IMG/VR virus record: IMGVR_UViG_3300026224_000022
Length of the DNA stretch: 8,120 nucleotides
Source of the DNA: a virus
Taxonomy: Duplodnaviria > Heunggongvirae > Uroviricota > Caudoviricetes
Direction: 5' to 3' (one strand)
Shown in pieces: positions 2,384 through 5,388 of this stretch. The position numbers and the translations under genes are program-made. Position 1 is the first letter of the stretch; each line of letters starts with the position of its first letter. The notes under the pieces are model-generated. The model was not told the origin of the DNA, did no database searches, and saw only the letters and a program-made list of their open reading frames with translations.

Positions 2384-2587
2384 ATGAACCGTTATTTCAC
2401 ATGCTCGTTTTGTGGCGCAAACGAGCTGCAGGCAAAAAAAATCATCGCCAAAGGCGGAAAAGATGAAGTTGCTATCTGCTCTGAGTGCGTAGTCTTGTGT
2501 GTCGGGGCATTAATCAATATCAGCACAACTATTCAGTTCACACCAAATGAGAATGCGCCTTTAGATGCGCGGAAATCTGGAGGTTAA
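2384..2587 (+). CDS. Small protein (67 aa) resembling the ClpX N-terminal C4 zinc-binding domain
   Basis: ATG at 2384 with AGAGAG 5 nt upstream (track start 2366 has no SD). MNRYFTCSFCGANELQAKKIIAKGGKDEVAICSECVVLCVGAL matches the ClpX ZBD pattern as I recall it (CSFCG ... K/R-x-I-A ... IC-x-EC-V-x-LC), with all four Cys present. No AAA+ module follows. Confidence 0.75.
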   Translation: MNRYFTCSFCGANELQAKKIIAKGGKDEVAICSECVVLCVGALINISTTIQFTPNENAPLDARKSGG

Positions 2588-2595
2588 AGAACAAA

Positions 2596-2871
2596 ATGAA
2601 AGTCCAGATTTTAAACAATAGTGGTGAAGTCGTTTGGTCATACGACATAGCCGCTCATGTAGATCAGAGCGGCGATAGCTGGACCAATGGGAAACATCAG
2701 ATTATGGCTGGAGTTGTGTTCTCTTTACGCCGTGCTTTAGAACAGGCTGAAGTCTTTCCATTAGACCCTGAATGGAAATGGCCTTTTTCTATTTGTCCAA
2801 ATTCGGAGAGTACATTTCAGAAAATTGGTCAGAAAGTCGCACTCGAAGAGCATCAGCCAACTGTTTCCTGA
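2596..2871 (+). CDS. Hypothetical protein, 91 aa
   Basis: ATG at 2596, 8 nt after the stop of the upstream gene; GGAGG at 2579..2583 gives a rather long spacing of about 12 nt. Protein-like composition. The 3' 83 nt overlap the convergent minus-strand ORF 2789..3034, so one of the two may be shorter or spurious. Confidence 0.45.
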   Translation: MKVQILNNSGEVVWSYDIAAHVDQSGDSWTNGKHQIMAGVVFSLRRALEQAEVFPLDPEWKWPFSICPNSESTFQKIGQKVALEEHQPTVS

Positions 2872-3034
2872 TTTTTTCAGGTAACTCGTCGGCATCGCAG
2901 AAACAACAACGCTCGATCATGTTGAAAGCCGATTCGTAGAACTGTTTCTGCTGAGTGTCGCTGAGACAGGAAAAGAGCGACGTTACGATGATTTTATTAA
3001 TTGCATTATCAAGTTCTTTTTCATCAAAAGTCAT
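2789..3034 (-). CDS. Hypothetical protein, 80 aa, opposite orientation within the plus-strand operon (moron-like)
   Basis: ATG at 3034..3032 with AAGGAA about 7 nt upstream on the minus strand; stop TAG at 2791..2789. Translation MTFDEKELDNAINKIIVTSLF...CCFCDADELPEKIRKQLADALRVRL... is protein-like. No homolog recognised. Confidence 0.55.
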   Translation of the reverse strand: MTFDEKELDNAINKIIVTSLFSCLSDTQQKQFYESAFNMIERCCFCDADELPEKIRKQLADALRVRLSDQFSEMYSPNLDK

Positions 3035-3899: not shown

Positions 3900-4724
3900 A
3901 TGTCTCAGTACTTAGACGCAACCGCAATTAATCAAATCCAATCCCTTATTTCTGCTCAGGGTGTTAATGAAATTATCAGTAAGATTGGTGCCGATGCTGT
4001 GGCATTGCCTGAGAATTTCCGCATTCATGATCTGGAAAAATTTAATTTAAATCGTTTCCGTTTCCGTGGTTCACTTTCCACTGCCAGCATCGATGACTTT
4101 ACCCGTTATTCTAAAGATCTTGCAGATGAAGGCACCCGCTGCTTTATCGATGCCGATAATATGCGAGCCGTCAGTGTGCTTAACCTGGGTACTATTGATG
4201 AACCAGGTCACGCAGATAACACCGCCACTCTCAAACTGAAAAAGACAGCACCGTTCTCTGCTCTGTTGTCTGTTAATGGCGAGCGTAACTCCCAGAAGTC
4301 ACTGGCAGAATGGATTGAAGACTGGGCCGACTACCTTGTGGGCTTTGATGCTAATGGTGACGCCATTCAGGCAACCAAAGCGGCTGCGGCGATCCGTAAA
4401 ATCACAATTGAAGCGAACCAGACCGCTGATTTTGAAGACAATGACTTCAGCGGCAAACGCTCCCTGATGGAGTCTGTCGAAGCGAAGACCAAAGACATTA
4501 TGCCAGTGGCATTTGAATTTAAATGCGTTCCGTTTGAAGGTCTGAAAGAACGTCCGTTTAAATTACGCCTCAGCATTATCACTGGCGATCGTCCTGTACT
4601 GGTTCTGCGCATTATTCAGCTGGAAGCGGTGCAGGAAGAAATGGCTAACGAATTTCGTGATCTGCTTGTTGAGAAATTCAAAGACAGCAAAGTAGAAACC
4701 TTTATTGGTACTTTCACCGCCTGA
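3900..4724 (+). CDS. yfdQ: YfdQ-like protein, 274 aa (DUF-type prophage protein of unknown function)
   Basis: ATG at 3900 with TGAGGA about 7 nt upstream. Long ORF with good codon usage. Size and position match YfdQ of CPS-53 (recalled, not searched). Confidence 0.85.
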
Positions 4725-4736
4725 TTTCATTACTGC

Positions 4737-4758
4737 AAATGCCCCTGCGGGGGCATTT
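4737..4758 (+). terminator. Hairpin after the yfdQ-like gene (terminator/attenuator candidate)
   Basis: AAATGCCCC (4737..4745) pairs with GGGGCATTT (4750..4758) across a 4-nt loop, 13 nt after the stop codon. The T-run lies within the stem, so this is a weak or bidirectional terminator. Confidence 0.4.
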
Positions 4759-4851
4759 ATGGAAACGTAATTAACTCAATAATCACCGGATGGTGAGGGA
4801 TTCTTTTTAGCAGAATTCAGCGCGGTGCAGCGCATATACGTGGAGAACAAA

Positions 4852-5388
4852 ATGTCATTTATTAAAACTTTTTCCGGGAAGCATTTTTATTATGACAGGA
4901 TAAATAAAGACGACATCGATATTAACGATATCGCGGTTTCCCTTTCAAATATCTGTCGCTTTGCCGGTCATCTTTCGCACTTCTACAGCGTCGCCCAACA
5001 TGCGGTTCTTTGCAGCCAGCTGGTGCCGCAGGAATTTGCTTTTGAAGCGTTAATGCATGATGCAACAGAAGCGTATTGCCAGGACATTCCCGCACCACTG
5101 AAACGCCTTCTTCCTGACTATAAACGGATGGAAGAAAAAATAGACGCCGTAATCCGTGAGAAATACGGGTTACCACCGGTTATGAGTACGCCCGTGAAAT
5201 ATGCCGATCTCATCATGCTGGCAACCGAACGCCGCGATCTCGGGCTTGATGATGGCTCTTTCTGGCCTGTACTGGAAGGTATCCCGGCAACAGAGATGTT
5301 CAACGTGATTCCACTGGCTCCAGGCCATGCCTACGGGATGTTTATGGAACGCTTTAACGAATTATCGGAGTTACGCAAATGCGCATGA
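4852..5388 (+). CDS. yfdR: HD-domain phosphohydrolase, YfdR-like 5'-deoxynucleotidase, 178 aa
   Basis: ATG at 4852 with GGAG (4842..4845) 6 nt upstream; the track start at 4825 is GTG without SD. H...HD signature visible (SVAQHAVL ... ALMHDATEAY). Length 178 aa matches K-12 YfdR, which I recall as a characterised HD-domain 5'-deoxynucleotidase. Confidence 0.85.
   Translation: MSFIKTFSGKHFYYDRINKDDIDINDIAVSLSNICRFAGHLSHFYSVAQHAVLCSQLVPQEFAFEALMHDATEAYCQDIPAPLKRLLPDYKRMEEKIDAVIREKYGLPPVMSTPVKYADLIMLATERRDLGLDDGSFWPVLEGIPATEMFNVIPLAPGHAYGMFMERFNELSELRKCA

Follow-up and report, generated by a model that had tools for sequence, protein, structure and literature searches.

A stand-alone ClpX-type zinc-binding-domain protein encoded behind a conserved leader RNA in lambdoid prophages, a candidate competitor for ClpX ligands

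The DNA analysed here (8,120 nucleotides of IMG/VR virus record IMGVR_UViG_3300026224_000022; the whole stretch is called the window below) is 8.1 kb long and represents the immunity and early-left region of an E. coli prophage, a lambdoid one of the SfV/mEp460-like kind. Open reading frame (ORF) 2384-2587 of the window encodes a protein of 67 residues, MNRYFTCSFCGANELQAKKIIAKGGKDEVAICSECVVLCVGALINISTTIQFTPNENAPLDARKSGG. By profile score, predicted zinc ligands and modelled fold this protein belongs to the zf-C4_ClpX domain family, i.e. the family of the zinc-binding domain (ZBD) at the N-terminus of the ClpX unfoldase, and it is not itself a ClpX unfoldase. Its gene directly follows a conserved structured leader RNA, in what appears to be the early-left operon of the phage. 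We tentatively favor the idea that the protein is made early from a PL-type promoter and competes for the ligands of the ClpX N-domain.

A sequence-only reading of the window had recognized in this ORF the C4 zinc ribbon of the ClpX N-terminus without an ATPase module, and had named as checks a profile search and the superposition of a predicted structure on the ClpX ZBD. Both were carried out and both bear out the assignment. The protein matched Pfam PF06689 (zf-C4_ClpX) with 41.4 bits against a gathering score of 27 (E 1.3e-10; residues 6-40, profile positions 2-34 of 39), and a sequence search of the PDB returned only ClpX ZBD or full ClpX chains (2ds5, 1ovx; E 2.5e-4 to 5e-3). In a Foldseek search, the AlphaFold2 model of the protein superposed on the ZBD crystal structures 2ds5, 2ds6 and 2ds8 with target-normalized template-modeling (TM) scores of 0.78-0.82, a root-mean-square deviation of 1.5-1.7 A and a probability of 1.00, and no fold other than the ClpX ZBD was returned at E <1. 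The mean predicted local distance difference test score of the model was 64.8, with block means of 70-82 for residues 1-40, 58 for residues 41-50 and less than 50 for the tail (residues 51-67); at this moderate confidence it has the beta-hairpins and C-terminal helix of a treble-clef-type fold that can be superposed on solved ZBDs. Cys7, Cys10, Cys32 and Cys35, which are invariant in all intact alleles, align with the zinc ligands of ClpX and form two CxxC knuckles separated by 21 residues, versus 18 in ClpX, and we infer that the protein binds zinc and dimerizes. The AAA+ module is absent: the NCBIfam ClpX equivalogs TIGR00382 and PRK05342 scored only 22.7 and 25.8 bits, where their cut-offs are 370.75 and 359, in partial matches that span model positions 6-48 only.

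An alternative in-frame ATG at 2366 would extend the product to 73 residues. The start at 2384 is preferred because it is preceded by a Shine-Dalgarno-like AAGAGAG box, because all homologues start with MN(R/N/S/H) and because RefSeq WP_001083098.1 uses the same start; the Salmonella allele has CAGGAG at the position equivalent to the box. The RefSeq name of this entry, 'ClpX C4-type zinc finger protein', and a match to PHROG 5259 (E 2.1e-31; function listed as unknown) show that the domain call is not new. The sequence-only reading, which knew of no described phage factor of this kind, therefore somewhat overstated the novelty of what is already routine annotation. Its statement does hold for function: a full-text literature search, with most subscription journals outside its coverage, found no functional study of this family or of any stand-alone ZBD protein.

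The close family comprises four allele types that have their N-terminal 45 residues in common and differ in their C-terminal parts, with lengths of 67 residues (the window), 61-66, 112 (Salmonella) and 121 residues. Over codons 1-45 the ratio of nonsynonymous to synonymous substitution rates (dN/dS) is 0.10-0.27 where dS is computable; between types, dN is 0.15-0.28 and dS is saturated in most pairs. The ZBD part is under strong purifying selection, while the C-terminal tails have been swapped among the four types, and because such ratios hold across four diverged types, the coding nature of the ORF is not in doubt. The motifs conserved in the family are CSFCG, K-(I/L)-I-A and ICxECVxLC. Several of the tails carry a short motif of the form hydrophobic-x-hydrophobic-x-F-x(1-5)-[AS]-P, for example IDITFEHSP, IDISFPDAP, LSVKFDYAP and ITVKFGDAP, with TIQFTPNENAP in the window (loci including L067, L080 and L063; proteins P0009, P0010, P0013 and P0021).

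The region between the repressor gene and ORF 2384-2587 has the layout of an OL/PL region, as far as motifs and predicted structure can tell. A hairpin predicted to end the repressor transcript (-15.6 kcal/mol, z -4.32, with none of 200 shuffles as good) has an annotated terminator as its counterpart at the equivalent place in SfV. In the window the operator motif ACTAAGN5TTAG is found at 1487 and 1536, in the cI-cro intergenic region, at 2228 and 2264, just after cI, and nowhere else; 0.28 matches are expected by chance and none of 200 shuffles reached five. The 2264 operator overlaps the sigma-70 promoter-like site and sits between its hexamers. This arrangement agrees with the earlier claim that the gene is the first after OL-like operators.

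Downstream of the promoter-like site lies a leader of 60-68 nt that is a real structured RNA. Its alignment draws on 12 phages (the window, SfV, a Salmonella prophage, ST64B, ZF40, YeP1, SPN3UB, mEp237, Klebsiella phi9.2, PHB10, Aeromonas pAEv1818 and the T5-like Providencia phage PSTCR5), and 10 of the 14 predicted pairs show compensatory changes. Pairing is realized in 92.3% of the alignment cells, versus 21-43% when the partners are slid; covariation is 0.615 versus at most 0.131, and none of 500 shuffles reached the observed covariation or percentage paired. A covariance model built for the leader scores 75-92 bits, with one copy per locus, always between the repressor cassette and the early-left genes, in phages of Enterobacterales and Aeromonas as well as in the T5-like Providencia phage. 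The leader is conserved far outside the phage group of the window, also where the ZBD gene is absent, and its presence in many phages without the gene rules out that it needs the ZBD protein as a partner. It has no match in Rfam, and its invariant core sequence was not found in the literature searched. It may represent a new early-operon regulatory RNA common to many enterobacterial phages. Like the put RNAs of HK022, it is a structured RNA of about 70 nt located just downstream of an early-left promoter and before the first gene (PMC9378689). Unlike them, it is not detectably similar in sequence to the HK022 PL region, where the covariance model finds no match, and no second, PR-side copy was present within the 8-13 kb examined; these differences rule out homology to put. 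That the leader might act as a put-like processive antiterminator is possibly true by analogy, and is offered as an attractive guess.

The position of the ZBD gene relative to this leader was surveyed in 80 IMG/VR loci encoding a relative, together with RefSeq examples. In essentially all of the approximately 80 IMG/VR loci with upstream sequence, the gene lies directly 3' of the conserved leader, and the spacing between the two is almost constant. The repressors upstream are diverse, including the type found in the window, the SfV type, a 231-residue Salmonella type and several others that are only 26-43% identical to these. In loci with L014-type immunity, an opposite-strand gene for a 306-residue protein (L014 1908-2828, minus strand) is inserted between the repressor gene and the PL-like promoter, and the ZBD gene still follows the leader; the site of the opposite-strand gene looks like a true 'moron' slot, distinct from that of the ZBD gene. 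Because the leader is constant while the repressor varies and the L014 insertion separates the two, the constant unit is promoter/leader-ZBD and not cI-ZBD. The gene downstream of the ZBD gene also varies among loci; the 91-residue gene that follows it in the window is absent there in L014, L045 and L047, and in SfV the leader is followed by orf33 without a ZBD gene. An obligate pairing of the two genes is ruled out, as each is found without the other, and the ZBD gene is therefore an independent accessory cassette in the first early-left position.

Of 5426 complete E. coli genomes searched, 98 contain the gene, but it turned up in only 4 of the roughly 50,700 phage records on deposit. The Salmonella allele occurs in >13,000 blocks of an assembly collection, and the source names given for this allele include serovars Typhimurium and 4,[5],12:i:-. 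A word-indexed homologue search returned only 15 close relatives; the wider family emerged from an exhaustive profile search, which gave 632 clusters at E <=0.001, most of the top matches being proteins of 50-300 residues with one to four ZBD copies. A family-profile search of genome contigs, in which the species representatives lack the prophage, gave two remote Clostridia matches only. PHROGs contains at least four families of ZBD-only phage proteins, all of untested function, and BFVD holds further ones, one of them mislabelled 'Clp protease'. The genomic context was sampled for the Salmonella allele and ten single-domain representatives, two of whose contigs were too short to judge. A different 65-residue stand-alone ZBD protein (L104 4001-4198, plus strand) is encoded directly after a Mu-like prophage repressor, divergent from a MuA-type transposase operon; one ZBD gene is in the early-right operon of a phage with an S24 repressor, one adjoins integrases, and several are in runs of small phage-type genes or near terminase. 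Many bacterial proteins in the wider family are built solely of ClpX-ZBD repeats in tandem, two to four per protein (P0024, P0026, P0028 and P0029), and we know of no function described for such tandem proteins.

A further feature of the gene is the A8 tract across codons Ala17-Lys18-Lys19-Ile20, a frameshift hot spot that is kept in the Salmonella allele. The tract is A7 in strain Ec-050 and A9 in CX04, in both of which the ZBD gene was left unannotated, and it is A7 in 5 IMG/VR loci, where the product is truncated to 35 residues. The A7 and A9 variants could reflect decay, slippage-based switching or assembly error.

What a free ZBD might do is suggested by the role of this domain in ClpX. 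Among the targets of ClpXP in phage biology is the Mu repressor. The ClpX N-domain is a zinc-bound dimer, and its ligands include lambda O, MuA, UmuD', FtsZ, the MqsA degron and adaptors, for example SspB (PMC8808172; PMC5415555). SspB, RssB and trigger factor (TF) all bind to one hydrophobic region, of which Phe16 and Ile46 are part and which overlaps the site for lambda O; if the ZBD is missing, lambda O escapes degradation (PMC7804408). L12 and L13 of ClpX are needed for binding of the MqsA degron, for which H23 also matters (PMC8808172). That ClpX acts in phage switches has precedent: in S. aureus phages, both the removal of the N-terminal CI fragment and the completion of induction require ClpX, and LexA fragments are likewise ClpXP substrates (PMC10584840). 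In the phage protein, Phe9 aligns with ClpX Phe16 and is kept in the family, Tyr4 and Phe5 preserve the hydrophobic character of the L12 and L13 positions, A30 is retained as Ala22, and the helix ECVVLCVGALIN is hydrophobic, as in ClpX. Because the ZBD fold and much of its hydrophobic face are kept, the protein could bind N-domain ligands. The gene would be transcribed from the repressor-controlled PL-type promoter as the first cistron after the leader, and from that position the protein would appear once the phage infects or is induced, but would be absent from the stable lysogen. Such a free ZBD could then bind adaptors that dock on the N-domain (SspB, RssB) as well as N-domain-dependent substrates (lambda-O-type initiators, MuA-type proteins, UmuD', FtsZ, antitoxin degrons), and ligands so bound would be kept from ClpXP, which would alter the stability of phage or host regulators and, with it, the lysis-lysogeny decision or early lytic growth. 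We infer both the binding partners and the effect on ClpXP. The slot does carry host-modulating genes, as seen in mEp237, where the small host-targeting gene kil follows the same leader. The purifying selection on the ZBD part and the conserved link to the early-left leader also fit a competitor role, as do the other stand-alone ZBD genes in regulatory or early regions of phages, among them the one in the Mu-like prophage that is divergent from a gene for a MuA-type transposase, MuA being a substrate of the ClpX N-domain (PMC5415555; PMC8808172). The broader idea, that various temperate phages, SfV/ST64B-like lambdoids and Mu-like ones among them, use ClpX receptor-domain copies beside the lysis-lysogeny switch as decoys or anti-adaptors that reprogram ClpXP when the phage infects or is induced, may be true, although we are more guarded about it.

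Several observations weigh against a competitor role. Positions that contact ligands in ClpX differ in the phage protein, so that its binding specificity may differ as well: His23 is replaced by Leu15 and Ile46 by Ala42, at positions that vary within the family, and a three-residue insertion in the hairpin (AKGGKDEVA versus AG---PSVY in ClpX) is accompanied by an invariant Ala30 in place of Tyr34. With only 36-39% identity to the E. coli ZBD in the structural alignment, and an old lineage behind it, the protein does not represent a host mimic of recent origin. The structural model is of only moderate confidence. A frameshift in the A8 tract is present in approximately 10% of type-A copies, indicating that prophage carriage does not require the gene. 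Proteins other than ClpX also have the zf-C4_ClpX domain, for instance cyanobacterial sigma factors, on which it is an accessory domain (PMC11119718), and it can therefore serve as a general interaction module.

The last of these uses of the domain leads to the alternative that the ZBD fold is a generic zinc-ribbon module unrelated to ClpXP, acting as a Kil-like, FtsZ-binding modulator of division or as an accessory factor of transcription or replication in the early operon. The occurrence of kil as first gene after the same leader in mEp237, the direct binding of FtsZ by the ClpX N-domain (PMC5415555; PMC8808172), the presence of the domain in non-ClpX architectures (PMC11119718) and the divergence of the contact residues from ClpX all fit such a module, as does the label 'transcription elongation factor Elf1' (another zinc ribbon) that one source attaches to the protein. 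However, all significant sequence and fold matches are to ClpX ZBDs, with no other zinc-ribbon family at Foldseek E <1, and the surface motif CSFCG...K-I-I-A typical of ClpX has been retained under selection, and we regard this explanation as rather unlikely. We consider it unlikely that the protein instead docks on ClpX itself, through mixed N-domain dimers or through its tail, and so retargets or blocks ClpXP as a poison subunit, adaptor or anti-adaptor. The tail of the window allele is short and of low predicted confidence. The ClpX ZBD dimer is reportedly very stable, and subunit exchange would be improbable if this is so. What speaks for docking is that the ClpX ZBD is a dimerization module (PMC8808172; PMC5415555), that the hydrophobic character of the helix is shared with ClpX, and that the combination of a constant ZBD with interchangeable C-terminal tails or domains, in proteins of 61-121 residues, several of them with the short tail motif given above, resembles the architecture of an adaptor.

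From the position of the gene, the sequence-only reading had considered an exclusion or defence function expressed in the lysogen. Such a gene, comparable to rexAB or sieB, would require read-through from the repressor transcript, and the ZBD gene does lie on the strand of cI, 185 nt downstream of it. Lambda offers a precedent in rexB, which lies after cI and reportedly blocks ClpP-dependent degradation of lambda O and antitoxins. This explanation is nevertheless highly improbable for the ZBD gene: a strong terminator hairpin and an operator-controlled promoter separate it from cI, its linkage is with the early-left leader rather than with the repressor gene, the L014-type loci having an opposite-strand gene between cI and the ZBD gene, PADLOC-DB gave no match at E <=0.01, and frameshifted copies are common in lysogens. 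Co-transcription with the repressor, as for rex- or sieB-type genes, is not what the sequence predicts, and the arrangement argues that ORF 2384-2587 is probably an early-left (PL-type) gene. The least credible alternative is that a clpX 5' end was captured and has left a remnant with no function. The shortness of the gene and the existence of frameshifted copies would be expected of a remnant, yet four diverged types keep the frame, the start and all zinc ligands, the dN/dS values reject a pseudogene, and the relatives, which are small ZBD proteins, make up hundreds of clusters. That host clpX was captured recently is ruled out by the low identity to E. coli ClpX, by the insertion specific to this lineage and by the four allele types, which are old. 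Among these explanations, competition for ClpX N-domain ligands remains the one that we prefer, with the reservations given above.

The features of the window on which this account draws are collected in Table 1.

Table 1. Coordinates of features in the window
Feature	Position	Strand	Details
CII-like gene	left part of window	minus	
cro	1275-1475	minus	P22_Cro-type
cI-like repressor gene, HTH_3 and Peptidase_S24	1573-2199	plus	Pfam Peptidase_S24 E 1.6e-27, HTH_3 E 3.5e-9
Predicted terminator hairpin of repressor transcript	2218-2249	plus	13-bp stem followed by UUUUCUCUU; inverted repeat I7
OL-like operator, ACTAAGN5TTAG	2228-2242	plus	one mismatch
OL-like operator, ACTAAGN5TTAG	2264-2278	plus	exact
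PL-like sigma-70 promoter-like site	2253-2281	plus	TTGCCA-17-TAGATT; consensus scan 9/12; consensus match only
Structured leader RNA, 68 nt	2293-2360	plus	closing helix 2295-2300/2353-2358, small invariant hairpin, covarying hairpin
Shine-Dalgarno-like AAGAGAG	2372-2378	plus	read from sequence, 5 nt before ATG 2384
Stand-alone ClpX-ZBD-like gene, 67 residues	2384-2587	plus	ATG 2384, TAA 2585-2587
ZBD core, residues 4-45	2393-2518	plus	low-confidence tail is residues 51-67
A8 homopolymer, frameshift hot spot	2434-2441	plus	codons Ala17-Lys18-Lys19-Ile20
Next operon gene, 91 residues, SfV orf33 homologue	2596-2871	plus	PHROG 3195, E 3.7e-62

The window is piecewise 97-99% identical to mEp460_4F5, SKA5, SfV and many Stx phages. 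Its repressor is labelled 'LexA family protein' in RefSeq, and the plus-strand operon 3' of the intergenic region comprises the ZBD ORF, the 91-residue ORF, yfdP, yfdQ (DUF2303), and genes for an HD hydrolase, an Eae/Ea22-like protein and an exonuclease. The 91-residue ORF (2596-2871, plus strand) and a convergent ORF (2789-3034, minus strand) overlap by 83 nt; they belong to the unknown-function families PHROG 3195 and 3311, respectively, and each is annotated in some records. A minus-strand terminator-like hairpin (3090-3071) lies just upstream of the convergent ORF. The plus-strand stretch at 3114-3337 matches Rfam STnc100 below threshold (42.4 bits versus a gathering score of 47; E 1e-6) and is given in RefSeq as a frameshifted hypothetical pseudogene upstream of yfdP; a weaker STnc100 match is present at 4716-4895 (plus strand).

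Many switch proteins relevant to phages are under the control of ClpXP, established cases being replication initiators (lambda O, for one), the MuA transpososome, cleavage fragments of LexA and CI, antitoxins, sigma-S and FtsZ. A phage-made copy of the ClpX docking domain would, if our proposal is correct, be a simple means of adjusting the whole N-domain-dependent flow of substrates simultaneously. It would also suggest a function for hundreds of uncharacterized clusters of stand-alone and tandem ZBD proteins. The literature search found no description of a receptor-domain mimic, and to our knowledge the 67-residue protein would in that case be the first described virus copy of the substrate-docking domain of a host AAA+ unfoldase.

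Compared with the ClpX N-terminal ZBD, the phage protein has the same CxxC...CxxC zinc site, the CSFCG and ICxECVxLC motifs, the Phe16 equivalent, the C-terminal helix, the fold and the family assignment, and it differs in that it lacks the AAA+ motor, carries the three-residue hairpin insertion, has not kept His23, Tyr34 and Ile46, and is a phage-encoded version of 67 residues in a family with variable C-terminal tails. Phage inhibitors of host AAA+ proteases include lambda CIII, which acts on FtsH and is encoded in the PL operon, T4 PinA and T7 Gp4.5, which act on Lon, SPO1 Gp53, which acts on ClpCP, and lambda RexB, which acts on ClpXP. Like these, the 67-residue protein is a small early phage protein, encoded, as is CIII, in a repressor-controlled leftward operon, and would alter the stability of regulators through a host ATP-dependent protease. 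It has no sequence relationship to any of them, zf-C4_ClpX being the only domain that Pfam finds in it, and copying the protease's own receptor domain, as we suppose it does, is not the mode of those inhibitors; among the phage-encoded modulators of host AAA+ proteases it would stand out by a new mode, mimicry of a receptor domain. A further comparison is with the RssB anti-adaptors IraD, IraM and IraP, small proteins that shift the substrate choice of ClpXP via a delivery component and not via the protease active site. In contrast to the phage protein, these anti-adaptors are host-encoded, are of unrelated fold and are specific for RssB, whereas the phage protein resembles the docking site on ClpX.

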